From a virus (lineage: Duplodnaviria; Heunggongvirae; Uroviricota; Caudoviricetes): DNA of 64,000 nucleotides. The translations under genes were made by a program, and so were the position numbers. Within the stretch, counting starts at the first letter, position 1. Every line of letters starts with the position of its first letter. Below the pieces are notes generated by a model. The model saw only the letters and a list, made by a program, of their open reading frames with translations, was not told the DNA's origin and did no database searches. This document shows positions 4,942 through 45,225 of the stretch, piece after piece. Location: IMG/VR virus record IMGVR_UViG_3300037484_000445, positions 259,863 to 323,862 of that record. One strand, written 5' to 3'.

Positions 4942-6108
4942 CTATGGCGTGGCAAAGCTCATGATGGGTGTGGCAAATACGCTGTTGTCGAAGTTCCAAG
5001 CATCTCCAGTGTTGCCCTGGTAAATGAAGACACGACTGCCCGCATTGACCAGTACAATAGAAGAGTTCACAGGAACAGCATTAATGTCGTAGTTTGGCAC
5101 TCTTAGTACTTGGGACATGATCCAACTGAGGCCGCCATCCTCACTCAGGTAAGTGTAGATCTGTGCGTAAGATCCGTTGAATCCACCGACTGCAAGGATG
5201 TAACGACCTTCGACGTCTAGACGTTCCAAGTGGGAATTTGGAGCCCAGGAGAAGAAGGATTGGCTAGCAAACGTGATCCATCGACCATTGTCCCAAGAAG
5301 TACCGTTAGTTGTCGAGGAGTAGATTGCGTTGCTGGCACTATTGATAATGGCCCAACGATTGAACTTCTTGGAGTAGGTAACATCCTTGATGGGGTATGC
5401 TAGTGGCACCGATATGGTGCTCCAGGTCACGCCACCGTCAAGAGACCGGTAAGTAGACGCCCCAAAGAACATCAGGTGAACAGCGCCTGAGTCACTCACG
5501 CCATAAGCGGTTGGAGAACCCCCTGGCACGACGACCGTAGCACAGATGTTAGTGAAGGGACTCGTGGCATTCGTACCTCGCATAACCATCAAGTTGCCAC
5601 CTGGGTCTATAGCGGGGTAGTAGATGTAACCAGCGTCCTTGGCATACCTTATGAGCGACAAGGACACAGGATAGCCTGGTAAGTCGACAGAACGATCAAT
5701 GTAGTTAGGTGGGCCTTCTAGAGCATTGCCACCTAGAATAGCAAGAATCTTCCCGAGACCACTAGTGTCACCGCCTAAGATCCAAAGATAGTTATCGATG
5801 AACATCAACGAGTTGATGTTGGCGAAAGCCGTGCCAGGTCCGATGGTGAAGTCATTCTCATAGAAGTCCGCAAACGACTCGGACCTGATGATGCTAGGAG
5901 AACTTCCTAGAGAGGGCCCGCGTAGCATCACTGTCGTAAGGGTGTTGCCTTGGAAATGACAAGCACCTCTTCTTGCGTCGTCGCCCCGGATGGAATAGTG
6001 TCCGTAGGTGCTGGAAATCGGTACGTTGATTTCGGATATCCGAGTGAAGCTGGAAGCCGCCTGGAGGACAACGGGGTTGGTTACAGAGACATTTCTGAAA
6101 TGTGGCAT
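4942..6108 (-). CDS. BNR/Asp-box repeat protein (sialidase-like beta-propeller)
   Basis: SxDxGxTW Asp-box motifs (SLDGGVTWS, SEDGGLSWI); Gly/Ser/Thr/Asn/Tyr-rich. Confidence 0.65.
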   Translation of the reverse strand: MPHFRNVSVTNPVVLQAASSFTRISEINVPISSTYGHYSIRGDDARRGACHFQGNTLTTVMLRGPSLGSSPSIIRSESFADFYENDFTIGPGTAFANINSLMFIDNYLWILGGDTSGLGKILAILGGNALEGPPNYIDRSVDLPGYPVSLSLIRYAKDAGYIYYPAIDPGGNLMVMRGTNATSPFTNICATVVVPGGSPTAYGVSDSGAVHLMFFGASTYRSLDGGVTWSTISVPLAYPIKDVTYSKKFNRWAIINSASNAIYSSTTNGTSWDNGRWITFASQSFFSWAPNSHLERLDVEGRYILAVGGFNGSYAQIYTYLSEDGGLSWIMSQVLRVPNYDINAVPVNSSIVLVNAGSRVFIYQGNTGDAWNFDNSVFATPIMSFATP

Positions 6109-10669: not shown

Positions 10670-11052
10670 CTTCCGAACTCTCCGTCACTGAGCTCAAGAC
10701 TTTACTTCACCAGGCCCACGCCGCCCTTCGTAAGGTCGATGCCTCCGATACGACAATTCCCCAGCTACCGCCCACTCTCGATGCCGTTAGCGATGCGATT
10801 CAAGCCATGGAAGAGGCCCTTCCCTCTCTCCGTTCGGATCCATCGTGGCCACCTTCTCAGGAAGTAACCGAACCAGAGGCCAAACAGGTCGTCGAAGATG
10901 CCATAGCCGCCATTTGGAAGGATATGACGGACAGGCGTGGTATCAAGTGGGAGTTGCAAAACTGCGACCCAGACATTCAAGAGGAAATTCGCGACGTCTG
11001 GCGTAGGCAATTCAACAAAGTTCTCGAAGCAAGTTTGACACCTTCAGAGTAA
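10666..11052 (+). CDS. hypothetical acidic protein (possible sigma partner or anti-sigma)
   Basis: ATGA overlap with the sigma gene. Confidence 0.45.
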   Translation: MTSELSVTELKTLLHQAHAALRKVDASDTTIPQLPPTLDAVSDAIQAMEEALPSLRSDPSWPPSQEVTEPEAKQVVEDAIAAIWKDMTDRRGIKWELQNCDPDIQEEIRDVWRRQFNKVLEASLTPSE

Positions 11053-11844
11053 ATGAACCTTGGGGGAGACACCGAAAAACACGCCGTAGGGGTCACTTCC
11101 TCGGGACATCCCCAGCATGAAGGTCCCTGAGAACGCCCAGGACTTACTGGGAGCCCAAGCAAGGCTCGCCGCCGTATGAAGTTGCCGAGGGTCCGTAGAG
11201 AAGAAGTAGACTCCACCGATCTCGGTTGAAATGTTCCAGGTATCGGTTAGGTCCCGGTCAAAGCTAAGACCCCCTTCGTAGCCACATGGCCTGGAAGTAT
11301 TTTCCACCGTGGGATCGACTAGACCGCCTACGTTAGCAATGAAATGTGTTTGAGTGTAGGAGAGCCCAAACAAGAAGAGCCCTTCTAGACCCAGCCCTTG
11401 AGCTTGGCGGGCTATAGGAAGCTTGGGGCCTAGCTGTAGCCCCATCAACAGAACCCGGCTTCTGGAGGCATTCTGGAAAGAAAGAAGGCCAGCTTTGAGG
11501 GCCACCCACAGGTTGTCGGGAGATACCCGGTAACCTGCAGCACCGTCAAGGGTGAAGGCCCCATCCACGTCAAGTTCCAGTTGGTCTGTAAGACCAAGGT
11601 CGAACTCGGCATCGGGCACAACTATCCGACTCGAGTCGACCCCCTTCACCGCTCCGACTTCAAGATCCAGCTCGACCACACCAGCCCCCTCCAGCTCTAG
11701 ATCCGTAGGTTCAAACAACCTACGGATCGGTCTAGCCTCGGCAGCAGAGGCCGTCAGCAAGCAAAGGAGTAGGATTCTAGATCTTTTTGCCACCGTGCTT
11801 GTACGGACGGGTCCGGTTGTAGGCCGTCTTGAGCTCGATAGCAC
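11044..11844 (-). CDS. secreted protein, possible beta-barrel
   Basis: N-terminal signal-like hydrophobic segment (LLLCLLTASAAEA); alternating beta-like pattern. Confidence 0.45.
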   Translation of the reverse strand: MLSSSRRPTTGPVRTSTVAKRSRILLLCLLTASAAEARPIRRLFEPTDLELEGAGVVELDLEVGAVKGVDSSRIVVPDAEFDLGLTDQLELDVDGAFTLDGAAGYRVSPDNLWVALKAGLLSFQNASRSRVLLMGLQLGPKLPIARQAQGLGLEGLFLFGLSYTQTHFIANVGGLVDPTVENTSRPCGYEGGLSFDRDLTDTWNISTEIGGVYFFSTDPRQLHTAASLAWAPSKSWAFSGTFMLGMSRGSDPYGVFFGVSPKVHLL

Positions 11845-12568
11845 TTACCAGGTCAATGTCGAACTGACGAGCAAGGGCGAATGTCCGAAGAACGGCACAC
11901 TTCAAGTATGCCCGGAAGTCAAACTGGGGGATAAGCGTACCATCTGCTTGCTCGTACATGGACCGTACGACGCAAGAAGTGGCCTTAAATAACCCCTCCA
12001 TGAAGGTCCCCTTCAAAGGCGGAATCGCACTTAGATCCAGCGTAAATGCGTCCCCCTCTGTCTCGGATAGCTTGTAGGGTAAGGGTTTGCTGATGTCGTC
12101 CAATCTCCCAACAGTGTCTGCGATTCGAATCACCAGATCTGCAAGTTCTGAGGGTATCCCGCAAGGCTTATCTCCAGGATTTCCTCGAACAGACATCTCT
12201 ACGCCGCCCTCAGAGTGTGTTAGCATGAACCACATCTCGTTGGGGGCGTGGTTCTTACGGTAGTCCTCGATGGCTTCAGACACCTCAGACACCATGAGCA
12301 TAATGAGGTCCACCAAGGGTCGCTCATCTTCCCACCAACCATGTTCAACAGCTATAGCGTACGAGATCTTTGGTAGTTCACGGAGGTTCATGCCTCGTGG
12401 GTACACCGTGTGTTGAACCAAAGATTGTGTGATTTGGTGTATTTCTAGCCCTTGACGTCCAAATAGAACCGGGTTACTCTTTCCAAACATCGCCGACGAG
12501 GGATGATCGTACGGTTTAACCCACCCCTGAATTGGGGTGAAGGACATCCCCTGTGCAAAATATAACAA
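11777..12568 (-). CDS. hypothetical protein (263 aa; TTG/alternative start)
   Basis: ORF with an internal ATG near 12546. Confidence 0.5.
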   Translation of the reverse strand: MLYFAQGMSFTPIQGWVKPYDHPSSAMFGKSNPVLFGRQGLEIHQITQSLVQHTVYPRGMNLRELPKISYAIAVEHGWWEDERPLVDLIMLMVSEVSEAIEDYRKNHAPNEMWFMLTHSEGGVEMSVRGNPGDKPCGIPSELADLVIRIADTVGRLDDISKPLPYKLSETEGDAFTLDLSAIPPLKGTFMEGLFKATSCVVRSMYEQADGTLIPQFDFRAYLKCAVLRTFALARQFDIDLVSAIELKTAYNRTRPYKHGGKKI

Positions 12569-12873
12569 TCGGCAGATTCGAGAAAGACCCTCAGGCCCAA
12601 GGCTGCATCGAGCCCGCGGATAAGCGTTGGCAACTCGTCATCGACAAGGACGGCTACCCGCATCTCTACGTCGAAGTCAACATAGCCGACGACAACGGTG
12701 TGAAGACCAAAGGCATGTTCTGCCTCGAGGACATGATGAACATCACCGTCAAGGAACTCATGGATGAGGGTGAGTTTGGCGGTGCTCTTCCCCCCGAAGA
12801 AGAGGAAGAGGCCATGGCCGAGTACCTAGCCTCACGAGAAAAGACTGGGATCCCGTGTCCCAGAAAGCTCTAG
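12553..12873 (+). CDS. hypothetical acidic protein
   Basis: GTG start. Confidence 0.4.
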   Translation: MQNITIGRFEKDPQAQGCIEPADKRWQLVIDKDGYPHLYVEVNIADDNGVKTKGMFCLEDMMNITVKELMDEGEFGGALPPEEEEEAMAEYLASREKTGIPCPRKL

Positions 12874-13397
12874 TCGAGCTTGGATAGGTATTGGACGGGC
12901 ACACGATCTGTGAGCCACACACCATTGGTGGACAGATAAAATGTGTGCCCGTCGATGAACATGTTCCGGGCCTTGACCAGCAGGACGTGAGGCAAGGGCC
13001 GTCGCTTGGCCACTTTGATGGCCGTCTCCGTGTCCGCCGAAAGGTGGACGTGGTGGCGGTTCATCTTCCTCAGGCCCTCTTTGAGGATCATCCCCAAAAA
13101 GTGGCCTGAGGTACCATGGTAGAGTAACTCAGGTGGCTGAGTAGCCTCATACCCTAGGTCAACTTCAACCGAATGCCCTTGGCAAGCACGGATCTTGTCG
13201 CCGTTGAACTCGTAGCGCTTCTTCTGGTCCGTGTTGACGATTTCGTACAATTCCCCCGTAGTCATTGAAGCCGCTTTTACAAGCTCTTCAATCGACACCC
13301 AGCCGGAAGCGTCGAGGGTTAGCCCAACGCTCCCAGGGTCATGCCTGAGGATCAGGCTGAGGTGTTTGCTCTTGCGTGTGCGAGTCTTGTTGTCCAT
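12870..13397 (-). CDS. kptA: RNA 2'-phosphotransferase, Tpt1/KptA family
   Basis: SKHLSLILRHDPGSVGLTLDASGWVSIEEL..HGTS..HVHL is the hallmark of Tpt1/KptA. Confidence 0.85.
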   Translation of the reverse strand: MDNKTRTRKSKHLSLILRHDPGSVGLTLDASGWVSIEELVKAASMTTGELYEIVNTDQKKRYEFNGDKIRACQGHSVEVDLGYEATQPPELLYHGTSGHFLGMILKEGLRKMNRHHVHLSADTETAIKVAKRRPLPHVLLVKARNMFIDGHTFYLSTNGVWLTDRVPVQYLSKLD

Positions 13398-13968
13398 CGG
13401 GGATTGCTTTGAAGAATTGAGGTATGGTGCCGACGGCTGTCCCGTTCTCGATCATCATCTGGTGAATAATCTTCTCGGGTACGAACCGATTACGGCCCTT
13501 CGGGCACTTCATCTTCCGTGTGTGTCCAAAGAGTTGGCAAAGCAAGGGTCTCACAACGTGAACCTTACAGGAGCCCTCTTGGAAGAAGGGGCATGTCAGA
13601 TGTCCTGTGTACTTCGGTACTACTTGATGCTTTTCGACATAAGCCTTCAAGCGATGAAGCTCCGTGGCTGTGATGGGCACAGGACCACAACAGTCGCCAC
13701 AACCGGGCACACACGTGATAACAGGTAGACTTACTCGCACTGGTTTCTCTTCGGTTAGTTCTTCGGGGACCGTCTGCAGAAGGTCTTTGCCTCGTATCGT
13801 GATTGTGTAGTCAAAGACCGCCTCAGTCTCTCGAAGAGTGGCCCTAAGGTATCTCATTGACACCAAGGCATCTTTGGTAGCTTGAGTACCTGTAAGTGTT
13901 CCTGTTCGGCTAAAGTCTCGAAGGGCGCGAATCATGACCTTTGAGACACGGTAATGATCACTCTGCAC
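13339..13968 (-). CDS. YkgJ-like Zn/Fe-chelating Cys-cluster protein
   Basis: CVPGCGDCCG resembles the CxxCGxCC motif of PF03692; additional Cys follow. Confidence 0.5.
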   Translation of the reverse strand: MQSDHYRVSKVMIRALRDFSRTGTLTGTQATKDALVSMRYLRATLRETEAVFDYTITIRGKDLLQTVPEELTEEKPVRVSLPVITCVPGCGDCCGPVPITATELHRLKAYVEKHQVVPKYTGHLTCPFFQEGSCKVHVVRPLLCQLFGHTRKMKCPKGRNRFVPEKIIHQMMIENGTAVGTIPQFFKAIPDGQQDSHTQEQTPQPDPQA

Positions 13969-13978
13969 GCCCTTCTTT

Positions 13979-15334
13979 TTACACCGACGCCGCCACCTCC
14001 GGAATCAAACCCAACAGTTTTTCTTCGGAGTTCAAGGTAGGATCTTCAGTTACCCTTTCCAACAGCTCGGCCAAGATGTTTCCAACCTTGGGCCCTGGGG
14101 GGATGTTGAGCAACGTCATCACGTGGTGGCCACTCACCGCCAACATGCTGGACGACGTGGGGATGGTGCCCACGCTGTCGATCCGGTGCTTGAGCTCGTT
14201 GATAGTGGTGATCTCCAGAGGAATGAAGGCGTTACCCTTACCTACGATGTCCGCTATAGCCAACGTGGTTAGGTGTGGGATGTGCTCGACTCCGACACTT
14301 CGCATCCATCTACGGACGGCGGCATCACTCCAATCGGATTCATATCGAACGAAGTGGTGCCGGACCAAGTGGGCCACTCGGGCGACTTCGTCGCTCGAAA
14401 ACCTCAAGCGGGTCATCAAGTCCTGCGTCATAGCGGCCCCGATATGTTCGTGGTCGTAGAACGTAGCGTCCCCGTGTTGTGGGTGGGGCTTCTTCGAATC
14501 TGGCTTGCCGATGTCGTGAAACAATGCTGCAAACCTGAGCATGGGGTCGCTGGCCGGGCAAGTATCCACCACCTTCATGGTGTGATTCCAGACATCGAAC
14601 TCATGGTACCGATTCTGGCCACACCCCACCATAGGGAGCATCTCCGGCAGAATCATTCCAAGCATCCCCGTGGAGGCCATCAGGTTGAAAGCTCTCGAGG
14701 GTTCAGCAGCGGCCATGGTCTTGGTCAATTCATCTCGGATCCGCTCAATAGAAACCCTCCCCAGTTGGTCTAGGGTATGGGCTAGGGCAATCCGAGTGGA
14801 GTCGATCAGGGTCAAGTTGTGCGTGGCCGAAAAGCGGATGGCTCGAAGAAGACGAATACCATCCTCACGGAACCGGTCAAATGAGTTTCCAACCGTACGC
14901 AAAATCCCTGCTTTGAGGTCCTGCCGTCCGTTGTAGGGGTCGAAGTAGTAGCCGCCACCCTCGACAAGAGGGTCGAAGGCTATGGCATTGACCGTGAAGT
15001 CCCGCCGGGCTAGGTCATCGTGGATGCTCGTGGAGAACTCGACGCTATCCGGCCTTCGACCGTCGGAATAGGTGCCATCCTTACGGTAGGTTGTAACCTC
15101 AAATCCTTCGCCCTCGAGACGGACCGTGATAGTCCCGTGCTTGGCTCCGATGTCCAACGAATGGCTGAAGCACCGTTGAGTCTGTTCGGGGGTGGCATTG
15201 GTCGCAAAGTCCCAATCATGGACGGACCTTTGAAGCAATAGATCTCGAACGGCACCACCTACAAGCCACGCTTCGAAACCCTTATCCTGTAGAGTCTGGC
15301 AAATGGCTATGACTTTTGGGGGGATGGAGTTCAT
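13979..15334 (-). CDS. cca: CCA-adding tRNA nucleotidyltransferase (class II) with HD domain
   Basis: GGAVRDLLL, DWDFAT, ARRDFTVNAIAF in the head domain; HD motifs HTMKVVD..FHDIGKP. Confidence 0.85.
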   Translation of the reverse strand: MNSIPPKVIAICQTLQDKGFEAWLVGGAVRDLLLQRSVHDWDFATNATPEQTQRCFSHSLDIGAKHGTITVRLEGEGFEVTTYRKDGTYSDGRRPDSVEFSTSIHDDLARRDFTVNAIAFDPLVEGGGYYFDPYNGRQDLKAGILRTVGNSFDRFREDGIRLLRAIRFSATHNLTLIDSTRIALAHTLDQLGRVSIERIRDELTKTMAAAEPSRAFNLMASTGMLGMILPEMLPMVGCGQNRYHEFDVWNHTMKVVDTCPASDPMLRFAALFHDIGKPDSKKPHPQHGDATFYDHEHIGAAMTQDLMTRLRFSSDEVARVAHLVRHHFVRYESDWSDAAVRRWMRSVGVEHIPHLTTLAIADIVGKGNAFIPLEITTINELKHRIDSVGTIPTSSSMLAVSGHHVMTLLNIPPGPKVGNILAELLERVTEDPTLNSEEKLLGLIPEVAASV

Positions 15335-15600
15335 AAGGCTATCTCTTCGTAGGCATCTTTGGTGACATTCAACTGCATTTTGGAGACATCTTGGCCGGTG
15401 TGATCCGTCAAGTAGATGATGCCTCCAGAGTCAAGGTGACTTTCGGAGTTTTCGAAGCTTAATTGGTCGGCTATGAAACACCGTCCTTGGGCATCACGAT
15501 CAAGCAAGAGGCCGCCGGCCCAAGATATGAATTGTAGTCGATTGAACCGCAACACAACTGGCTTGGTGGCTGATGGGGTATCTTTGACGTGCCGCGGCAT
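15331..15600 (-). CDS. hypothetical protein, first gene of the cca-kptA operon
   Basis: ATG start with TGA/ATG overlap onto cca. Confidence 0.45.
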   Translation of the reverse strand: MPRHVKDTPSATKPVVLRFNRLQFISWAGGLLLDRDAQGRCFIADQLSFENSESHLDSGGIIYLTDHTGQDVSKMQLNVTKDAYEEIAL

Positions 15601-15655
15601 GATTCTAGTACGGCGGGGTTGAAGTAGAACTTAAGGACCTGGTGTAAGGTTTGAC

Positions 15656-15814
15656 ATGAGCTCAATACACCTGACCATTTGCGATCATTGCGGGAACCCT
15701 GAGCATGGAATCCCCACGATAGATATATGGTTCAAGGTGGGCCAGAGCTACACATCTGTTCGACGTGCCAGTCGAAGCCCTTTCGACGTATATCCCCACA
15801 CCCCAAGATGGTAG
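15656..15814 (+). CDS. small ORF (52 aa) with CDHCGNPEH knuckle
   Basis: Below the track threshold, but preceded by GGTGTAAGG plus 7 nt like other genes. Confidence 0.25.
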   Translation: MSSIHLTICDHCGNPEHGIPTIDIWFKVGQSYTSVRRASRSPFDVYPHTPRW

Positions 15815-15839
15815 CCCTAAAGGAGCTTCTTAGCGAGGT

Positions 15840-15946
15840 ATGGCGTGGAGGAGTTGAACCTCCGTCCGCAGGATGAACCCCACGTGCTTTAGTCCGTGTC
15901 TAAGAGGGTCAAGCGCTTGACCCTCGGAGATCCAAGCTAACGCCAT
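15840..15946 (-). ncRNA. tRNA-like element with extended non-canonical body
   Basis: On the minus strand the 5' end ATGGCGT pairs perfectly with the 3' end ACGCCAT (7 bp), followed by discriminator A. A canonical T-arm GGAGG-TTCAACT-CCTCC sits directly before the 3' acceptor strand. U8/A9 are present. The body is 76 nt rather than about 45 and contains the perfect palindrome GAGGGTCAAGC|GCTTGACCCTC (15904..15925). Confidence 0.35.
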
Positions 15947-16230
15947 GGGTTCAACCTATCAAACCCTTGAAGCCAAGTCAAAAGCTCACAACAGGACTTA
16001 GCGGGGCTCCCGGCTCAACAATCAGTAGGGCACCATGTTGGCTGCCAATCACGGTATTTGCAGGGACCTCGCGAATTTCCACCGGCTTTTTGCAGATGGG
16101 GCACGAGGTCTCTGACGGCTCAAGGATTACGACGTCACAGACGCCACAGACAGATAGGTTGAACATGAGGCTACCCTAAGTGAGAAGGGTAGTATACAGC
16201 ATCCTCAAAGACTTGCCACTCTGCCCCCAG

Positions 16231-17127
16231 TTACGAACCGGGGAAGTGAGGCATCACTTTGGACTGCCGAATCAGGTCTCCCGTTGCAGAGCGCCTGCCG
16301 CCGATGCTCTCGTTGAGCCAACAACGGACCTCAACACCTTGCTTCCATGTGAGGGCCCACACGAAGAGTGTGCCACTGACTAGCATTTTCTGGCCTGTGT
16401 ACTTAGACTTCTTCAATACCGGCGGGATCACAAGTTCGAAGTCATTGAAGTCTCTGGAGAGGTGGACAGCACGTCCTTCATGTCTCACTAGGATTTCGGA
16501 CTTCGAGGAGTACACAATCCCATCAGAATAAGAGGCGGCAAGGTTCCAATCAACCCCTTGTCCATGCATCTTCCACGAAGCTATAGCGTAGTAACGATTC
16601 CCCTCGAACACAAATTCCTTCCACAAGAACTTCGGGAATTTGTCGAGGGTAGACTTCTCCCAGCATCGATCTAGAAGTGGTATGAGGAATGGAACAAGCG
16701 GCGACTCAGTCTCTTGAGACAGAGGGCCTTCAAGATCGACAATACCGTCATCCTCGACGGACGTACCTAAAAAGTCTAAGGGATCGTCTGTGAGAAGACC
16801 TCCCCCAAGATCGAGGGTGAGTTTGTCCTCGGGATCAATTCGCTTTTTGACGGCATCCAGCTCAGGAACGACGCAGGTCACTCCTTCTCGAGGTGTGTGC
16901 TTCAACGCCAACAGCTCAGGAGTTAGTTGGACCTCTTTGATCTCGAGGTAGTCCAGGAACTGTTGGACGACTTCTTGTATGGTGCCCTTGGGAGTTTTTT
17001 CGTGAACCATCCTAGCGACTAAGATGGGGAGAAACTCAACCAGTTCCTCAGTACTACGGGTTTTGAACGTAGCAAACACATAGGAACGCAAAGCACGGCT
17101 ACGAGTCTTTGACTCACGCTCTGACAT
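16231..17127 (-). CDS. hypothetical protein (298 aa)
   Basis: ORF. Confidence 0.55.
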   Translation of the reverse strand: MSERESKTRSRALRSYVFATFKTRSTEELVEFLPILVARMVHEKTPKGTIQEVVQQFLDYLEIKEVQLTPELLALKHTPREGVTCVVPELDAVKKRIDPEDKLTLDLGGGLLTDDPLDFLGTSVEDDGIVDLEGPLSQETESPLVPFLIPLLDRCWEKSTLDKFPKFLWKEFVFEGNRYYAIASWKMHGQGVDWNLAASYSDGIVYSSKSEILVRHEGRAVHLSRDFNDFELVIPPVLKKSKYTGQKMLVSGTLFVWALTWKQGVEVRCWLNESIGGRRSATGDLIRQSKVMPHFPGS

Positions 17128-17241: not shown

Positions 17242-17745
17242 CTAGTTATCAGGCTTTTGCTGTCGAGCCCACACCAATCGATTGAGGTTAGCAGCGGCTT
17301 TTCGATGTGTTGGGTCGATCTCCAAAAGTTCCCGCCAGGTCAGCTCGGCGATCTCGGGATTGACTTCGCGGAGTCGGAGGCCCAGTTCGAAGAGCCAGGT
17401 CACCCGAGCTAGAAGGACCAATTGTTGGTCCACAATCCGGACGTTGAACTGTCGTTCGGGCGTCTGGTTCACATGGTCAGCCCAAATCTCTGGGACCCGT
17501 TGCACCGTGGCTTCTTGTTGGGCCTTGGCTACTTTACAGAGCTTTGAAGCAAAGCCCGCCTTCATCACATGCTCGGCGTAGTTGCGTTCGATCCTACGGA
17601 TGCAATGGCCGTCGACGAGGACATTGGTAACCAAAAGGCACTTCGCCGCAAAGTCTTCTGTCTGTACGTGTATGACAACTTCACCTACTGTGACGTTGCT
17701 ATTCAACCCGACCAGACATGAGGTTTTTTCGACTGGAATGTTCAT
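17242..17745 (-). CDS. hypothetical protein (167 aa)
   Basis: ORF. Confidence 0.5.
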   Translation of the reverse strand: MNIPVEKTSCLVGLNSNVTVGEVVIHVQTEDFAAKCLLVTNVLVDGHCIRRIERNYAEHVMKAGFASKLCKVAKAQQEATVQRVPEIWADHVNQTPERQFNVRIVDQQLVLLARVTWLFELGLRLREVNPEIAELTWRELLEIDPTHRKAAANLNRLVWARQQKPDN

Positions 17746-35223: not shown

Positions 35224-35931
35224 ATGGAAACTGCTTCCAAAAAGTACCCCCGGTCGCCCCACCTACCGTGGTCCCCCGGCGGTACCTCGGATGATCGGCG
35301 AATGCTCGACGTCTCGAGTCTTCTTGGGAAGGCGATCGTTTTCACCGAGAAATGTGATGGTAGCAACCTGACTTATACCCGAGACGCCATCTTTGCTCGA
35401 TCGCATAATGGGCCACCAACTCACGATAGCTTTGATCTGGCCAAGGCAACCCACGCCCATCTCAAGTACAAGATCCCCGCAGGGCTCTCAATCTTCTGCG
35501 AATATTGCTACGCCATCCATTCAATTGAATATGTAGCACTCCCGAGCTACTCTCTCGTATTTGGCGTCCGGGACGATAGCACCCGAGAGTGGTGGGGTTG
35601 GGAAATGGTCGAAGCCATGGCCCAAGATTTGGGACTTCCCACCGTCCCTGAGATCTGCCGCGGCGTTCTTCACACGGAAGCAGATCTTAGGGAAGTGTCC
35701 GAGGCATTTGCTCTACGACCCTCGGATTTTGGTGGAACCCGTGAAGGAGTTGTAGTCCGAGTGCTTGACGGCTTCCGTGATGAGGACTTCGATCAGAGTT
35801 TGGCTAAATGGGTCCGCAAAGGTCATGTCCAAACGGATGAGCATTGGACCAAGATGGTCATCAGACCCCAAAGGCTCAGTACTTCGGCTCGGGCAGTGTC
35901 CTGCAATACGCTAGAATTTCTAGCCAATTGA
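35224..35931 (+). CDS. ATP-dependent RNA ligase, Rnl2/DRB0094-like nucleotidyltransferase domain
   Basis: Motif I TEKCDGSN (KxDGxN), motif IV EGVVVR, motif V KWVRK. Confidence 0.6.
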   Translation: METASKKYPRSPHLPWSPGGTSDDRRMLDVSSLLGKAIVFTEKCDGSNLTYTRDAIFARSHNGPPTHDSFDLAKATHAHLKYKIPAGLSIFCEYCYAIHSIEYVALPSYSLVFGVRDDSTREWWGWEMVEAMAQDLGLPTVPEICRGVLHTEADLREVSEAFALRPSDFGGTREGVVVRVLDGFRDEDFDQSLAKWVRKGHVQTDEHWTKMVIRPQRLSTSARAVSCNTLEFLAN

Positions 35932-36346: not shown

Positions 36347-36841
36347 TTACACCAAAGGAACACCGTCGTCTATCAATCGAACGTTAGAATATCGAGGATC
36401 ACCTGTTACTTCAGGCCCTAACCATGGAGGTATTTCCACAGTGGCGAACTGTGATTCTATCTCTACTTCGGCCATTCGAAACCCGTCCAGGCTTCCCTGA
36501 AAATCATCGAGAGCCCATACGCGGCCCTCGTAAGAAAACTGGTGCCTGACCTTGATGATGGTCTTCGGGCACATCTTGATGAGTTGCTCGCCGTCGCCCC
36601 TGGGGATCTCGTATTCAAACTCATCCCGGACTAGCGTGCCGGGACCCTTGATGGTCAAGTAGGCAAGATGTCTCCCCCTAAGTCGTACCCTAACAAGAGG
36701 GTCCTTACTGAGAAACCCTTGAACTATGCGTGTCCCACCCTCCAGGATGGTGTTCGTGGGGATGTCAGAGCGAAGTAGGAACTTACGTTCGATCTCTTTG
36801 GCCATTCCTCTGGTAACACCACAGGAATGGATACCACCCAC
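36347..36841 (-). CDS. CYTH-domain triphosphate tunnel metalloenzyme
   Basis: EIERKFLL signature (ExExK) and conserved downstream Arg/Glu residues. Confidence 0.7.
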   Translation of the reverse strand: MGGIHSCGVTRGMAKEIERKFLLRSDIPTNTILEGGTRIVQGFLSKDPLVRVRLRGRHLAYLTIKGPGTLVRDEFEYEIPRGDGEQLIKMCPKTIIKVRHQFSYEGRVWALDDFQGSLDGFRMAEVEIESQFATVEIPPWLGPEVTGDPRYSNVRLIDDGVPLV

Positions 36842-39090: not shown

Positions 39091-39321
39091 TTAAGGCTCG
39101 GCCCCGCGATAGCGAAGTATTTCAAGGTAGGAGCTATAAGCGCTATGCCACTGACTGACCACTTCGTCTTCGTCGAGAGAGTTGTCCAGGGTCTTTTGGA
39201 TGATGACTTGCCGAACGTCAGCCACAGCAACCCCCAAGCGCTGAGCCAATGTCCTCTCGAGGGCCGCAAGTTCCTCGAGAGTTTGCTCATCGGTCTGGAT
39301 GAGGTCCTCGAAGTCCTTCAT
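39091..39321 (-). CDS. small acidic protein
   Basis: ORF. Confidence 0.4.
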   Translation of the reverse strand: MKDFEDLIQTDEQTLEELAALERTLAQRLGVAVADVRQVIIQKTLDNSLDEDEVVSQWHSAYSSYLEILRYRGAEP

Positions 39322-40058
39322 TGGATGAAGTGCATCATTTCTACCCAGCGATCGACGATCATCTGCGTGTACAAGACGGGGTCCATACCATAGGACCCAA
39401 GAGCCCAGGCATCGTTGACTTCGACGATGAGGGTGCGACCATCACCGCCCGTAACACCCACGTCAAGGGAGTAGCCACAAGGAGCATTCTTGAAAGAGGC
39501 TATTGCTTCGTGAGCAATCCTCCTTTCCGGGAATATCTCGAAGTCCCCGGCGTAGTGCCGGCAGCCGATCATCAGCTGGTTGTGGACGAAATAGCGATAT
39601 TCCGATACGAAGGAGACCGGATCTGAGGCTACTACCTCCATATCGTCAGGATGATCCGCTAAGGCCACCAAATCCGGGATGGTGCCGTTGAAAACGAACC
39701 CCGTGAAAGCCTTTTGTGCCTTGAGGGGTTTGATGAAGACGGGCCCAGACGTCTTACGTATCTCCCCCAAAGTTGTGGTCCAAGTCTTTCGCCCAAAAAG
39801 GGGCTCTATCTGGGGCGGTACTTCAGGTAGTTCTGGGATCTGCTTACCCAGGCACTTGATGGCTGACTTGACATGGGAGATGTAGCCGTGGACTAGGGTC
39901 TCTGGCTTCAGGTTATCCCGAATGTCCGAGAAGAATGAAAAGAACTGGGTCTCAATATCAAGCCTTTGACAGCCCAACCACAAGCAGTAGGCTGTCTCAT
40001 TGATGGGCAGCTTGGTGTTGTAGTCCACCTGAATGTAAGCAAGCTCAACAGTACTCAT
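39318..40058 (-). CDS. ATP-grasp-fold enzyme
   Basis: VFIKP..G, SEYRYFV, and LIVEVNDAWALGSYG (Mg-binding E-x-N) fit an ATP-grasp C-terminal domain. Confidence 0.5.
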   Translation of the reverse strand: MSTVELAYIQVDYNTKLPINETAYCLWLGCQRLDIETQFFSFFSDIRDNLKPETLVHGYISHVKSAIKCLGKQIPELPEVPPQIEPLFGRKTWTTTLGEIRKTSGPVFIKPLKAQKAFTGFVFNGTIPDLVALADHPDDMEVVASDPVSFVSEYRYFVHNQLMIGCRHYAGDFEIFPERRIAHEAIASFKNAPCGYSLDVGVTGGDGRTLIVEVNDAWALGSYGMDPVLYTQMIVDRWVEMMHFIQ

Positions 40059-40312
40059 GGTGTGCCCAATTTTGGTTGTAGAACTTCAACGGCCGCTAAT
40101 ATCGCTACCTTACCCTCTTCCGTGATCGTGTGGCCTGTCGTGTAATTGAACATCGCACTAGGCTCACTAGACTTCCTAAGAAACCCGTGTTTAATAAGAG
40201 GCGCCAACTCTTCCAACCGCTCATCCTTTGAGCGTAACACTTGAATACCGTTCACTTCGCACTCAATGTAGAAGATCAGCAAATCCTTAAGATTCTCGGC
40301 TGTAAGCTTCAT
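40055..40312 (-). CDS. small hypothetical protein
   Basis: ORF. Confidence 0.4.
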   Translation of the reverse strand: MKLTAENLKDLLIFYIECEVNGIQVLRSKDERLEELAPLIKHGFLRKSSEPSAMFNYTTGHTITEEGKVAILAAVEVLQPKLGTP

Positions 40313-41208
40313 TGAGCAAGAACCTTCTCGAAGCCAGCCATGTTGAGAGCGATCATGATTTGCACGGGTTCGGGAATCTGAGGCATGATGGCCGTAGTTT
40401 CATTGAAGGGGTTGCAACCCCATTCACCAGTTTTGGCCCGGTATGGGTCAACAGCAACCCAAGTCCCAATAGATGGGGTGAGTGCCGCTGCTGCAGCAAC
40501 CACATCATGAAGGGCTTTCCCCATAGGGTGCTTCTTGAAGTAGTAGCGCATCCCCTCCTTGATGAAGTCGAGCCCTGGATGCGCCCCTGATGGAACCTTG
40601 TCATTGAATTCCGGTGGCCAGAATATCCCGTGACACACGTTCTTAGGAACAAGCCTACGATGGCGTATGACCGATAGAGGGTTGCACAGAAGGGCTTTAG
40701 CCGCAGTCGGATCCCCATTCAAATTGTACGTAGGACACGTAATAAGACCATTGAACTTTGGTAGCCTTAGGGGTTCAGGGACAACGTTATCCCCGGCGAA
40801 CCCTCCTTGGCAGGTCCAATGGTTGAAGAACCTAATGCAATCCCGAGCGGCGTTGGCGATGTTCGTCAAAGCAGCACCCGTGACTAGTTGGACGTCTGGG
40901 AACTTCCAAAGAGCATCCTGGATGACGCTCACGGCTGTGTCGTCGGGGGGACTGTCTGGGATCTTACCCAACCAATCATAGTGGAAGGCCGAAACCTTTG
41001 GGCCTGACTTCTTGGGGGTACCAGCGCCGACATAGATGCCTTTCACTCCCAGGCGGTCCAAAACATGACGAACCAGGCCTACCTGGTCATGCCCGCCCGG
41101 ATGAATTGTCACAGCAACGAGATTGGACCTTGGATGGGTCGCTAGGAGAGCTAAAGCGAAGACGTCGTCGGGATCGCTGGTCTCCATATCAAATACGTAA
41201 TTGGTCAT
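40309..41208 (-). CDS. nucleoside hydrolase-like protein (IU-NH family)
   Basis: N-terminal FDMETSDPDDVFALALL resembles the DxDxxxDD Ca-binding signature; 299 aa. Confidence 0.5.
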   Translation of the reverse strand: MTNYVFDMETSDPDDVFALALLATHPRSNLVAVTIHPGGHDQVGLVRHVLDRLGVKGIYVGAGTPKKSGPKVSAFHYDWLGKIPDSPPDDTAVSVIQDALWKFPDVQLVTGAALTNIANAARDCIRFFNHWTCQGGFAGDNVVPEPLRLPKFNGLITCPTYNLNGDPTAAKALLCNPLSVIRHRRLVPKNVCHGIFWPPEFNDKVPSGAHPGLDFIKEGMRYYFKKHPMGKALHDVVAAAAALTPSIGTWVAVDPYRAKTGEWGCNPFNETTAIMPQIPEPVQIMIALNMAGFEKVLAQ

Positions 41209-43191: not shown

Positions 43192-43455
43192 GTGGACTCC
43201 TTCAAAAACGACGAAAAGCTGATTAGTGACGTAAAGGTAGGGGATCGCTACTACGAGTACGATTACAAGGGCCTTCAAAACCACACCGGAAATATCGTCA
43301 CTGTTGTTCGAGTTACCTCCCTTCAAGCGGTCTTGTTGAACGGTAAGCGCTTTAGCCGTATCACAGGCAACACCATTGGGCCTGACAAGTACACGGTCTT
43401 CTACCTGCCGATCACGCCCGCTCGCGAGGCTCGGCCGAACCACGACGCCTATTGA
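43192..43455 (+). CDS. hypothetical protein
   Basis: ORF. Confidence 0.45.
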   Translation: MDSFKNDEKLISDVKVGDRYYEYDYKGLQNHTGNIVTVVRVTSLQAVLLNGKRFSRITGNTIGPDKYTVFYLPITPAREARPNHDAY

Positions 43456-43820
43456 TGCTAAAAGTCATCCTATTCCTCGACGATAATCCGGCTCGACACA
43501 CCGTCATGGATGCCCGATACCCAAATGACTTGGTCGTGCATGCCTACAACATCCATGCTTTTCGAGCAGCGCTTGAGGAGCACGAACACTTTGACATGAT
43601 CAGCCTGGACCATGATCTCAATGATTTTGAGGCTCGGAGCTACATTGGAGATAGCGACGCCACAGGCCGTGACGCCTGTGGCTACATGATGAAGTACCGT
43701 GACAAGCTACCGCCAGTGATCATCATCCACTCGGGGAACGATGACGGATCTAAGGACATGGCGGAATTTCTAGCTAGTCGTGGAGTAGCCTCCCGCCGTC
43801 GGATCCTCTACCCCCTCTGA
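43452..43820 (+). CDS. CheY-like receiver (REC) domain-like protein
   Basis: ILFLDDNP, DMISLDHDL and PPVIIIHSGND occur in receiver-like positions. Confidence 0.4.
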   Translation: MMLKVILFLDDNPARHTVMDARYPNDLVVHAYNIHAFRAALEEHEHFDMISLDHDLNDFEARSYIGDSDATGRDACGYMMKYRDKLPPVIIIHSGNDDGSKDMAEFLASRGVASRRRILYPL

Positions 43821-43821
43821 A

Positions 43822-45225
43822 TCAATCGGCACCCTTGATGTTGGCCAATGGATATAATCTGTTGGCCACTCGGGCAATCTTGTTGTCCGTAAGGACACTA
43901 AGGACTTCGTCCAGGTCTTTGTAGACCCGGCAACATTCATCCAATGGAATATGAGGGTGGTTCGTGGCGATGCCCACCACCGTATCCCCTCCAAGGGTTC
44001 GCTCGACCGTTCGCATATCCTCATCAATTTGGTCCTGCTGGCTCTCGAGTTCACGTCGAGCTCGGCCTCGGGCCATCAAACGACCTGAGCCGTGATTGAC
44101 TGAGCACGCCGATTGAATAGCCCCTGATTGTGCGAAAAGAATAGCGGCCCCATCGTACATCGACCCCGGGATGAGACAGGGGTGGCCGGTCTTTTCCCAA
44201 ACGGTTCCCACGAGGTCAGGGTGGCCCCCTGGAAAAGCTCTAGTGGCCCCCTTACGATGAACAAATCCTTTCTTGGTGGAACCATCAGGAAGAAGCAAGG
44301 TTTCCTCCTGGACGAGGTTGTGACTGATCTCGTAGTAGACAGTAGAGTCTCCCTTGAAAACCTCTTGGAGAGCTTCCTGTATGCCTCTAACTATCACATG
44401 GCGATTAGCGATAGCAAAGTTGGCAGCTGAGTTGTGATAAGCCCAATATTCCTTACCCAGGGCTTCATCTATCCTTAACCAGGATTCCTCACGTCGATTA
44501 TCTGGCAACCCTCGAAGCTCAGCTCCGCGATGAAAGAAGTGATTGGCCGTTTGCCATCCATAACCTCTCGATCCACAGTGGACCATCACGAAGACGTCTC
44601 CTGTTGCCTGGTCCGCCAGAAGTTCTACGTAGTGATTACCTCCCCCGACGGAACCTAGTTGAGGAACAACCTTGTCATAGGCCTTCTCGATGGCCTCCAG
44701 GTCAAGGTCATCTGGGATGGGAATGTATTGTCGTTCACACAGATTGCTATTGACGCCTAAAGCCTTAGCTCCATATCGGAGGATCTCTTGAGCCTTCTTG
44801 TGGCTGAAGGCCGGCATCAACTCCGGACGATTCGAACCAACCCCCGTGGCAATACGCTTTTCTACCTCTCGAACCCAAAGCTCTCGCTTGGCAAAATCCT
44901 GAACATCCTGAGTCTTGAGAGTGGTTTTTAGGGCCACAATTCCACAACTCACATCGTAACCAGACCCCGCTTGAATGAGAACATTGTCCGTGACGATCAC
45001 ACAACCAATAGGTACGCCGAAGCCCATATGACCATCAGGCATACCGTAAACCCCAGTCACGCCTTCATATGAAGCTGCATCGTGAAGCTGACTCCAAAAG
45101 GCTTCTTCAGAAGCCTCATATAGAGTCTCTGAAAAGAACACGTGAGCCTCAACCCTCATCGTGCCTACCTTAGGTAGGACGTAATGACTAGGACTTACCG
45201 GTTGAGCAATGTACTTGAAGGACAT
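43822..45225 (-). CDS. rtcB: RtcB RNA 3'-phosphate/5'-OH ligase
   Basis: MPDGHMGFG, GGGNHYVEL, HCGSRGYG, HNLV and NHGSGR motifs. Confidence 0.9.
   Translation of the reverse strand: MSFKYIAQPVSPSHYVLPKVGTMRVEAHVFFSETLYEASEEAFWSQLHDAASYEGVTGVYGMPDGHMGFGVPIGCVIVTDNVLIQAGSGYDVSCGIVALKTTLKTQDVQDFAKRELWVREVEKRIATGVGSNRPELMPAFSHKKAQEILRYGAKALGVNSNLCERQYIPIPDDLDLEAIEKAYDKVVPQLGSVGGGNHYVELLADQATGDVFVMVHCGSRGYGWQTANHFFHRGAELRGLPDNRREESWLRIDEALGKEYWAYHNSAANFAIANRHVIVRGIQEALQEVFKGDSTVYYEISHNLVQEETLLLPDGSTKKGFVHRKGATRAFPGGHPDLVGTVWEKTGHPCLIPGSMYDGAAILFAQSGAIQSACSVNHGSGRLMARGRARRELESQQDQIDEDMRTVERTLGGDTVVGIATNHPHIPLDECCRVYKDLDEVLSVLTDNKIARVANRLYPLANIKGAD

Follow-up and report, generated by a model that had tools for sequence, protein, structure and literature searches.

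Jumbo phages have already been listed as carrying several parts of a tRNA-repair repertoire, namely KptA, a CCA-adding enzyme, RtcB and cRec (Iyer et al., 2021, PMC7824862; Iyer et al., 2022, PMC9503650). In Runella slithyformis, a putative RNA-repair cluster consists of a ligase, HD-Pnk, Tpt1 and MTase-HIT (PMC6097658). The locus described here lies in a 64,000-nucleotide (nt) stretch of DNA from a virus of the Caudoviricetes (IMG/VR record IMGVR_UViG_3300037484_000445, positions 259,863 to 323,862), referred to as the window, and combines a gene for an RNA shaped like tRNA with a co-oriented operon for a class-II CCA-adding enzyme. The RNA is structured, tRNA-shaped and non-decoding. An initial annotation of the locus had presented the RNA, the CCA enzyme, a YkgJ-like protein and KptA as one undescribed unit. 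The novelty stands for the linkage of the RNA to the CCA enzyme and to a winged-helix-CxxCxxCC protein, as neither a CCA-linked tRNA-like RNA gene nor such a partner is described in the two surveys, but not for KptA, the CCA enzyme, RtcB and cRec, which are known from them (PMC7824862, PMC9503650). The protein parts are thus of known kinds already described in jumbo phages; the RNA, judged from its sequence, appears to be a new family among tRNA mimics, and no earlier description of its linkage to a CCA enzyme was found in the literature. The explanation we place first, though still tentatively, is that of a separate RNA gene beside a co-oriented CCA operon, in which the RNA is CCA-tailed and acts in trans as a tRNA mimic and the proteins form a repair set.

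Comparison with canonical tRNA shows both what the phage RNA keeps and what it lacks. The RNA occupies 15839..15946 of the minus strand and is 108 nt long up to its discriminator base, A15839, as delimited by a covariance model, RNAalifold and the minimum free energy (MFE) fold. It shares with tRNA a 7-base-pair (bp) acceptor helix, on which a 5-bp T-arm with a UUCRANU loop is stacked, a U8, a four-way junction and a discriminator purine. By direct reading, the acceptor helix is AUGGCGU/ACGCCAU, and the canonical T-arm GGAGG-UUCAACU-CCUCC (15847..15863) abuts it without a gap. The T-arm stem includes G53:C61, and the positions U54, U55, C56, R57 and A58 of its 7-nt loop are kept in all six sequences. 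U8 directly follows the acceptor stem, and the unpaired discriminator base after that stem is A, with G in one relative (L004). The MFE structure of the transcript 15946-15838 is a four-way cloverleaf of -46.6 kcal/mol (z -4.4), and none of 200 shuffled sequences was as stable. The RNAalifold consensus is also a cloverleaf, with 37 pairs, and runs from 5' to 3' through the acceptor strand, UA, a composite arm, A, a 7-bp hairpin, GAC, the T-arm, the acceptor 3' strand and the discriminator A or G.

The two remaining arms differ from those of tRNA. In the position of the D-arm, there is a 52-nt composite arm (15886..15937, minus strand) made of GCUUGG/CYAAAGC, UCU/AGA and a 9-bp hairpin (15925-15904) with an unvarying GCGC as its loop. 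A GCUU/AAGC stem and an unpaired GG at the G18-G19 position, both invariant, are placed as in tRNA, but the "loop" contains a 32-nt helix and the stem is without double-sided covariation. The GCGC of the terminal loop (15912-15915, minus strand) is self-complementary and lies within an invariant RGCGCUU; it could act in loop-loop dimerisation or as a protein-binding site. The anticodon-arm position (15867..15884, minus strand) is taken by a hairpin that is supported by covariation and consists in the window of a 7-bp stem with a tetraloop. Its stem is 5-7 bp and its variable loop 4-6 nt long among homologues, and a 7-nt anticodon loop was found in none of them. Because this closed hairpin replaces the anticodon arm, the RNA cannot decode. 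CCA is not encoded, the tails 3' of the acceptor stem being ACC, ACU, GCU and AUA, and in this respect the phage RNA is like the processed CCA-tailed tRNA mimics of the mascRNA type.

The RNA is present in six other contigs (L001, L003, L004, L005/L006 and L014), where it lies between the CCA gene and orf298, a gene for a conserved protein without assigned function. The covariance model gives 129.5 bits for the window and 111-129 bits for the relatives, with exactly one match per locus. Standard pairs fill 97.3% of the cells across six distinct sequences, versus 34-52% when the partners are slid by 1-3 columns. Compensatory changes on both sides occur in 9 of the 37 pairs, and none of 500 shuffles matches the observed values. 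This count is not a probability, and the alignment had been fitted to the model. Five pairs with compensatory changes are in the 9-bp hairpin and two in the anticodon-position hairpin, where four more vary on one side; the acceptor stem and the T-arm have one compensatory change each, from G:C to A:U in L005. These changes bear on the explanation that the element is a functionless, decaying relic of a tRNA or tmRNA, for instance a former integration-site copy. Such a relic would agree with the missing anticodon, the negative results of tRNA finders and the loss of the RNA from one relative (L013) without visible consequence. It would not be expected to show compensatory changes in four of five helices, to be better conserved than the flanking coding DNA (81% identity to L004 and 75% to L005, versus 68% and 66% for adjacent coding DNA), or to keep a consensus promoter at fixed spacing in genomes whose neighbouring genes share only 66-68% identity. 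We therefore regard a dead relic as very improbable.

Searches against known RNA families were consistent with a non-decoding RNA. The initial annotation had called the element tRNA-like, and this is borne out in so far as it is conserved and structured; it is, however, no tRNA, has no anticodon loop and is missed by ARAGORN and Rfam. ARAGORN found no tRNA or tmRNA in the whole 64-kilobase (kb) window and no tRNA genes in any of the loci, and Rfam gave no matches in the window at the gathering score. Several candidate identities were rejected. Under relaxed settings, ARAGORN calls a decoding tRNA for Lys, Val or Leu, in conflict between homologues. Folds as a class-II tRNA with a long variable arm or as an intron-containing tRNA were rejected, and the intron mode of ARAGORN gave no consistent call. 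With an anticodon loop placed at CUCUUAG or ACACGGA, the stem is unpaired, U33 is missing or the "anticodon" differs between homologues. The alternative UUAG/CUAA pairing seen in a first MFE fold is disrupted in three of five sequences.

The sole sub-threshold Rfam match in the window is to tmRNA (RF00023), with 20.8 bits against a gathering score of 47 and an expectation value (E) of 2e-4 for the whole window, over 40 nt in the T-arm region. As in the tRNA-like domain of tmRNA, GGAC is followed by the T-arm, and the 5' segment contains UGGAU. By direct reading, the 5' motif UGGAUCUCCGA resembles UGGAUUCGA, the D-loop analogue of tmRNA. Unlike tmRNA, the phage RNA has a four-way and not a three-way junction and is without an mRNA-like domain, a tag open reading frame (ORF) or pseudoknots. 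Its 108 nt hold helices only, with no internal tag-peptide frame, and position 3:70 is G3:C70 in all homologues, so that the alanine identity pair of tmRNA, G3:U70, is absent. The likenesses would suit a ribonucleoprotein scaffold akin to the tRNA-like domain of tmRNA or to bacterial Y RNAs, bound by the winged-helix-CxxCxxCC protein or by the product of orf298 instead of being a substrate for the CCA enzyme; these two conserved neighbours without assigned function, of which one has a modelled fold of a nucleic-acid-binding type, could provide the protein side. We consider such a scaffold improbable. The match is far under 47 bits, the identity pair and the tag ORF are missing, and the topology is tRNA-like and not the permuted layout of Y RNAs. 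The YrlA model gave no match at E up to 10 in 15400-16400, and neither a Ro/TROVE domain nor SmpB was seen among the roughly 50 window proteins covered by a scan that was not exhaustive.

The RNA has a promoter of its own. A sigma-70-type promoter (15953..15981, minus strand) with the -35 box TTGACT (15981-15976) and the extended -10 element TGATAGGTT (15961-15953) lies directly upstream, and this TTGACT-N15-TGATAGGTT is the sole match in the window to TTGAC-N15-17-TGNTANNNT. Its TTTGAC and TGATAG boxes are invariant in five homologues. The distance from the end of the -10 hexamer to A1 is 6 nt, and 5 nt in L005. Transcription is predicted to start at 15946, the acceptor base A1, and an RNase P step would not be needed because the transcript would begin at the first acceptor base.

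The placement of this gene also allows for the main rival explanation, in which the RNA acts in cis on the CCA operon, as its 5' leader or as punctuation. Transcription would start at A1 and continue into orf89, the first gene of the operon in the window, and the CCA gene. The tRNA-like fold would either be a site of cleavage by RNase P, RNase Z or RNase E or be bound by the CCA enzyme, which would thereby control its own mRNA. The RNA has the orientation of the CCA gene and always precedes it directly, no terminator-like site follows it, and the stretch from the RNA to orf89 gave no other good sigma-70 promoter. The RNA 3' end is about 45 nt ahead of the first ORF in L004 and about 100 nt ahead of the CCA gene in L005, with no gene between. 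Co-transcripts of tRNA and mRNA are known, and even a leader role would be compatible with release of a stable tRNA-like product. In the window subclade, however, the spacer from the RNA to orf89 is 238 nt long and carries an antisense ORF for a Zn-ribbon protein, and the operon of L013 is intact without the RNA and its promoter. Because of the L013 variant and the antisense ORF, we argue that the operon is independent of the RNA, and we hold a leader to be possible though somewhat unlikely. That the RNA heads the operon, as had been proposed, is not established.

In L013, which is 94-96% identical to the window, the segment corresponding to 16190-15792 is replaced by a TnpB element of about 1.5 kb (L013 1310-2790) that encodes a TnpB-like protein (PF07282 Cas12f1-like TNB, PF01385 OrfB_IS605) followed by a non-coding stretch. 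The replaced segment comprises a 62-amino-acid (aa) Zn-ribbon ORF, the RNA promoter and the whole RNA; orf89 and the genes for the CCA enzyme, the CxxCxxCC protein and KptA are kept intact.

Two small Zn-ribbon ORFs reach into the RNA or its promoter. The antisense ORF (MSSIHLTICDHCGNPEHG...CSTCQ..., a CxxC...CxxC protein; 15656..15876, plus strand) overlaps the 3' half of the RNA with its own 3' end, so that its C-terminal codons lie over the T-arm and the acceptor 3' strand. It is intact in L001, L003, L013 and L014 and absent from L004 and L005, and in the window it is split into two frames by a 1-nt deletion near 15720-15730. The 62-aa ORF (CGVC...CPIC; 15978-16166, minus strand) is located between orf298 and the RNA and is preceded by a promoter-like GTGGCA-17-TATACT (16219-16191) of its own. 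Its TGA stop falls inside the -35 box of the RNA promoter, and it is found only in the window, L001, L003 and L014.

Seven genomes were compared for gene content, namely the window, L001, L003, L004, L005, L013 and L014. Relatives of the CCA protein occur with 97% identity on a 457,658-bp Joint Genome Institute (JGI) contig, with 85% on a 448,843-bp contig and with 67% on contigs of 75 and 33 kb, and the search with orf298 brought in a 292,766-bp contig. The lineage is presumably one of huge phages; neither a capsid nor a terminase gene was seen in the window. Neighbouring genes include those for a sigma factor, HU, ThiF, a Phage_phiTE_072 domain and many small ORFs without assigned function. 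The RNA, the CCA enzyme and the CxxCxxCC protein occur jointly in six of the seven genomes, and the conserved core, as read from these sequences, is orf298, the RNA, the CCA enzyme, the CxxCxxCC protein and then a MazG-like pyrophosphatase. The gene orf298 (16231..17127, minus strand) is immediately upstream of the RNA gene; it has only five homologues in a set of 5.8 billion proteins, all from the same lineage, and its AlphaFold2 model is of low confidence (predicted local distance difference test, pLDDT, 62.7) and has no fold match.

DNA-pattern scans for the RNA in viral contigs and in metagenome contigs, and blastn against 50,697 phage records, found no match. The sole pattern match in a genome collection (L007 2218-2315, on a 5-kb contig binned as Rhizobiaceae) was rejected as a chance match inside high-GC coding sequence. 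Searches of viral contigs with the CCA enzyme and orf298 gave no loci, and the search of metagenome contigs with orf298 gave only L013. With the CxxCxxCC protein, two distant loci were found in viral contigs, neither with a CCA gene nor with the RNA.

The protein assignments of the initial annotation were confirmed, with KptA/Tpt1, the YkgJ-like protein and the class-II CCA enzyme with HD domain supported by Pfam (PF01885; PF03692; PF01743, PF12627, PF01966 and PF13735) and by active-site motifs, in agreement with NCBIfam and PHROGs. The 89-aa ORF and the minus-strand orientation of all the genes were also seen as listed. The CCA-adding tRNA nucleotidyltransferase (13979..15334, minus strand; phrog_2244) has a C-terminal HD phosphohydrolase domain (PF01966), and among solved structures it comes closest to the Bacillus stearothermophilus enzyme (1miv, E 9e-55, over head and neck domains). 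By direct reading, it contains GGAVRD, DWD, DDLARRD (DDLARRDFTVNA) and the HD motif, and it shares motifs A-E and the HD motif with the E. coli Cca-type and B. stearothermophilus enzymes. It differs from bacterial CCA enzymes in scoring under the NCBIfam equivalog cut-offs (TIGR02692, 307.6 versus 438.8; NF009814, 272.8 versus 290). Addition of the complete CCA is its putative activity, with CC-adding, A-adding or poly(A) specificity as alternatives. No exact copy of the window protein is on record.

The CxxCxxCC (YkgJ-type) protein (13339..13935, within an ORF of 13339-13968, minus strand; PF03692, E 1.5e-7) follows the CCA gene in all relatives. Its AlphaFold2 model (pLDDT 86.8) has an N-terminal helix-helix-strand-strand-helix domain joined to the Cys-cluster domain. 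The N-terminal part would be winged-helix-like, as it gives weak matches to MarR/PadR-like winged helices (Foldseek E above 0.1). No solved structure matched the Cys-cluster domain, and sequence searches of the PDB with the neighbouring proteins found nothing. Beyond the lineage, homologues of this protein are short, lack the N-terminal domain and do not lie beside CCA genes. The first gene of the operon, orf89 (15331..15600, minus strand; 89 aa), has no Pfam, NCBIfam or PHROG match. It is kept in L001, L004, L013 and L014 and absent from L005, and it is dispensable because a deletion in L003 removes most of it. The deletion spans about 190 nt (L003 about 5930-5990, corresponding to window 15559-15369) and leaves a stub of about 20 codons fused to the region just ahead of the CCA start. 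The next co-oriented gene in all relatives encodes the MazG-like nucleoside triphosphate pyrophosphatase (11777..12568, minus strand; phrog_3301, E 1.5e-32), with tblastn matches in L001, L003, L004, L005 and L014; its true start is probably near 12440. Overlapping stop and start codons had been described throughout the operon. They are found at orf89/CCA only (ATGA, 15331-15334); the CCA and CxxCxxCC genes are 10-43 nt apart, and the CxxCxxCC and KptA genes do overlap, but by 59 nt and not stop on start.

The KptA/Tpt1 RNA 2'-phosphotransferase (12870..13397, minus strand) is an accessory gene of well-supported family (PF01885, E 1.3e-44, 152.7 bits versus a gathering score of 26; phrog_5470, E 6e-59). 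Its closest solved relative is Runella slithyformis Tpt1 (7kw8, E 4e-49), and in the 7kw8 alignment its catalytic Arg-His-Arg-Arg residues, in LRH, IRACQGHS and KRR, align to Runella R16, H17, R64 and R119, of which the roles have been described (PMC6097658). On this basis, NAD+-dependent removal of 2'-phosphates is predicted. KptA and a convergent 106-aa ORF (12553..12873, plus strand; family-less in Pfam, NCBIfam and PHROG) form an indel of about 890 bp (window 13320-12430) that is gained and lost jointly. The cassette is whole in three of the seven genomes (window, L001 and L013), leaves remnants of the KptA 5' end in two (about 85 nt in L003, 7938-8024; about 20 nt in L014, about 10700-10725) and is absent in two, where nothing is found at its position (L004 and L005). 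From this pattern, KptA was acquired recently, in one subclade, and was lost again at least once and probably repeatedly; it is an optional extra outside the conserved core. Insertion of the cassette overwrote the original CxxCxxCC stop codon and added a 19-aa tail.

This instability decides against much of the integrated module of the initial annotation, in which the RNA, CCA enzyme, YkgJ-like protein and KptA would heal tRNAs or counter anticodon nucleases, with KptA acting on the RNA or on tRNAs repaired with it. The genes for KptA, the CCA enzyme and the CxxCxxCC protein are indeed adjacent and co-oriented in the window, L001 and L013, the last of which has lost the RNA, and the catalytic tetrad of KptA is intact. 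RtcB, a cREC protein and an RNA ligase are also encoded, and Tpt1 is linked to an HD-domain end-healing enzyme in the Runella cluster (PMC6097658). The likeness to that cluster, however, goes little further: the HD domain of the phage enzyme is joined to a CCA nucleotidyltransferase where Runella has a kinase, the phage KptA gene has neither a ligase nor an MTase-HIT gene as its neighbour, and the phage linkage is evolutionarily unstable. KptA is missing from four of seven genomes, two of which hold the deletion remnants, and with the RNA replaced in L013 the proposed unit fails to co-occur in related genomes. No adjacent ligase would leave 2'-phosphate junctions, as the ligases of the window are RtcB and one of PF09414 type. 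To our knowledge, neither of these types leaves a 2'-phosphate. The RNA offers an anticodon nuclease no anticodon loop, and nothing ties KptA to the RNA. Homologues of KptA occur in 98 phage records and those of the CCA enzyme in 508, and in two inspected KptA-carrying phage regions no annotated CCA-enzyme gene lies within 5-9 kb on either side of KptA. There is, in our view, little chance that the integrated module is correct, and it ranks with the tmRNA-like or Y-RNA-like scaffold and the dead relic among the less likely explanations.

On the favoured explanation, of a separate RNA gene with a product acting in trans, the host sigma-70 RNA polymerase would transcribe the RNA from A1, the transcript would be trimmed after the discriminator base, and a CCA-adding enzyme would add the 3' CCA, the neighbouring phage enzyme being the obvious candidate. 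CCA-adding enzymes accept acceptor/T-arm minihelices and tRNA-like RNAs, and CCA-tailing of the phage RNA is proposed because class-II CCA enzymes recognise the acceptor/T-arm minihelix. Acting in trans, the tailed RNA could then occupy enzymes that target the acceptor end or the elbow of tRNAs, as a decoy or sponge. Alternatively, it could work together with the CCA enzyme and the winged-helix-CxxCxxCC protein, or regulate them. The proteins would form a tRNA 3'-end repair set. The HD domain of the E. coli CCA enzyme has 2',3'-cyclic phosphodiesterase, 2'-nucleotidase and phosphatase activities; in the phage enzyme, the HD domain may clear 2',3'-cyclic, 2' or 3' phosphates, after which the nucleotidyltransferase would rebuild CCA. 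The KptA/Tpt1 cassette, which was inserted in one subclade into an operon of orf89, CCA-HD, winged-helix-CxxCxxCC and MazG-like genes, may remove RNA 2'-phosphates using NAD+ where it is present.

Several observations weigh against this explanation. No intrinsic terminator was found downstream of the RNA, and read-through into the operon is possible. The covariation rests on six distinct sequences from about four to five lineages, and in the long arm the basal helix varies only between G:U and G:C, with no double-sided change. Because L013 has lost the RNA, the RNA is dispensable in at least one genome, and the CCA operon is independent of it in cis. Distant phage CCA loci (L008-L010, L017 and L018; 52-57% identity) have no RNA, CxxCxxCC or KptA gene nearby. 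Terminal 2'- or 3'-phosphates are reported to be poorly removed by Runella Tpt1 (PMC6573784), and this weakens a simple scheme of 3'-end healing by the HD domain and then KptA.

The window contains further candidates for RNA repair. An RtcB RNA ligase (43822-45225, minus strand; PF01139, E 5e-83) and a divergently encoded protein with a cREC_REC cyclic-phosphate-processing receiver domain (43452-43820, plus strand; PF20274) form a second RNA-repair module, 28 kb from the CCA operon. An ATP-dependent RNA ligase (35224-35931, plus strand; PF09414, E 3e-26; phrog_24030) has near it a CYTH-domain protein (36347-36841, minus strand); both are candidates for RNA end processing. As in the published jumbo-phage repertoire, a CCA enzyme, KptA, RtcB, cRec and an ATP-dependent RNA ligase thus occur in one very large phage-like genome; here, in contrast, the repair genes are spread across 30 kb instead of making up one cassette. 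Other genes (17242-17745, 22415-23503, 24271-24990 and 39318-41208, all minus strand) gave matches to a RomY N-terminal-like family (NF053858, below cut-off), DUF4419, ThiF, an R2K-clade ATP-grasp and an inosine-uridine nucleoside hydrolase. A hint at the host may come from the RomY-like match and from the closest bacterial homologues of the CCA enzyme (Polyangiaceae, Myxococcales, Lentisphaeria).

Large phages are known for tRNAs and tRNA-repair enzymes that keep translation running under host attack. A non-decoding, tRNA-shaped RNA beside a phage CCA enzyme suggests that tRNA mimicry can serve another purpose, with the RNA as decoy, regulator or partner of an enzyme, in a compact system of one 108-nt transcript and one or two proteins. 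The RNA family is known so far from a single lineage, in which one natural variant does without it, and the linkage of KptA to this locus gives no lead to the physiological substrate of bacterial and phage Tpt1 that has long been sought. A broader proposal, which we put forward as speculative and rather unlikely, is that the RNA founds a class of phage non-decoding tRNA mimics that are leaderless, driven by a strong promoter of their own and CCA-tailed by a dedicated phage enzyme, and that act as decoys or sponges against host defence enzymes directed at the acceptor ends or elbows of tRNAs, or as RNA cofactors of the winged-helix-CxxCxxCC protein. If true, phages would have a means of counter-defence that differs in principle from the carriage of spare decoding tRNAs.

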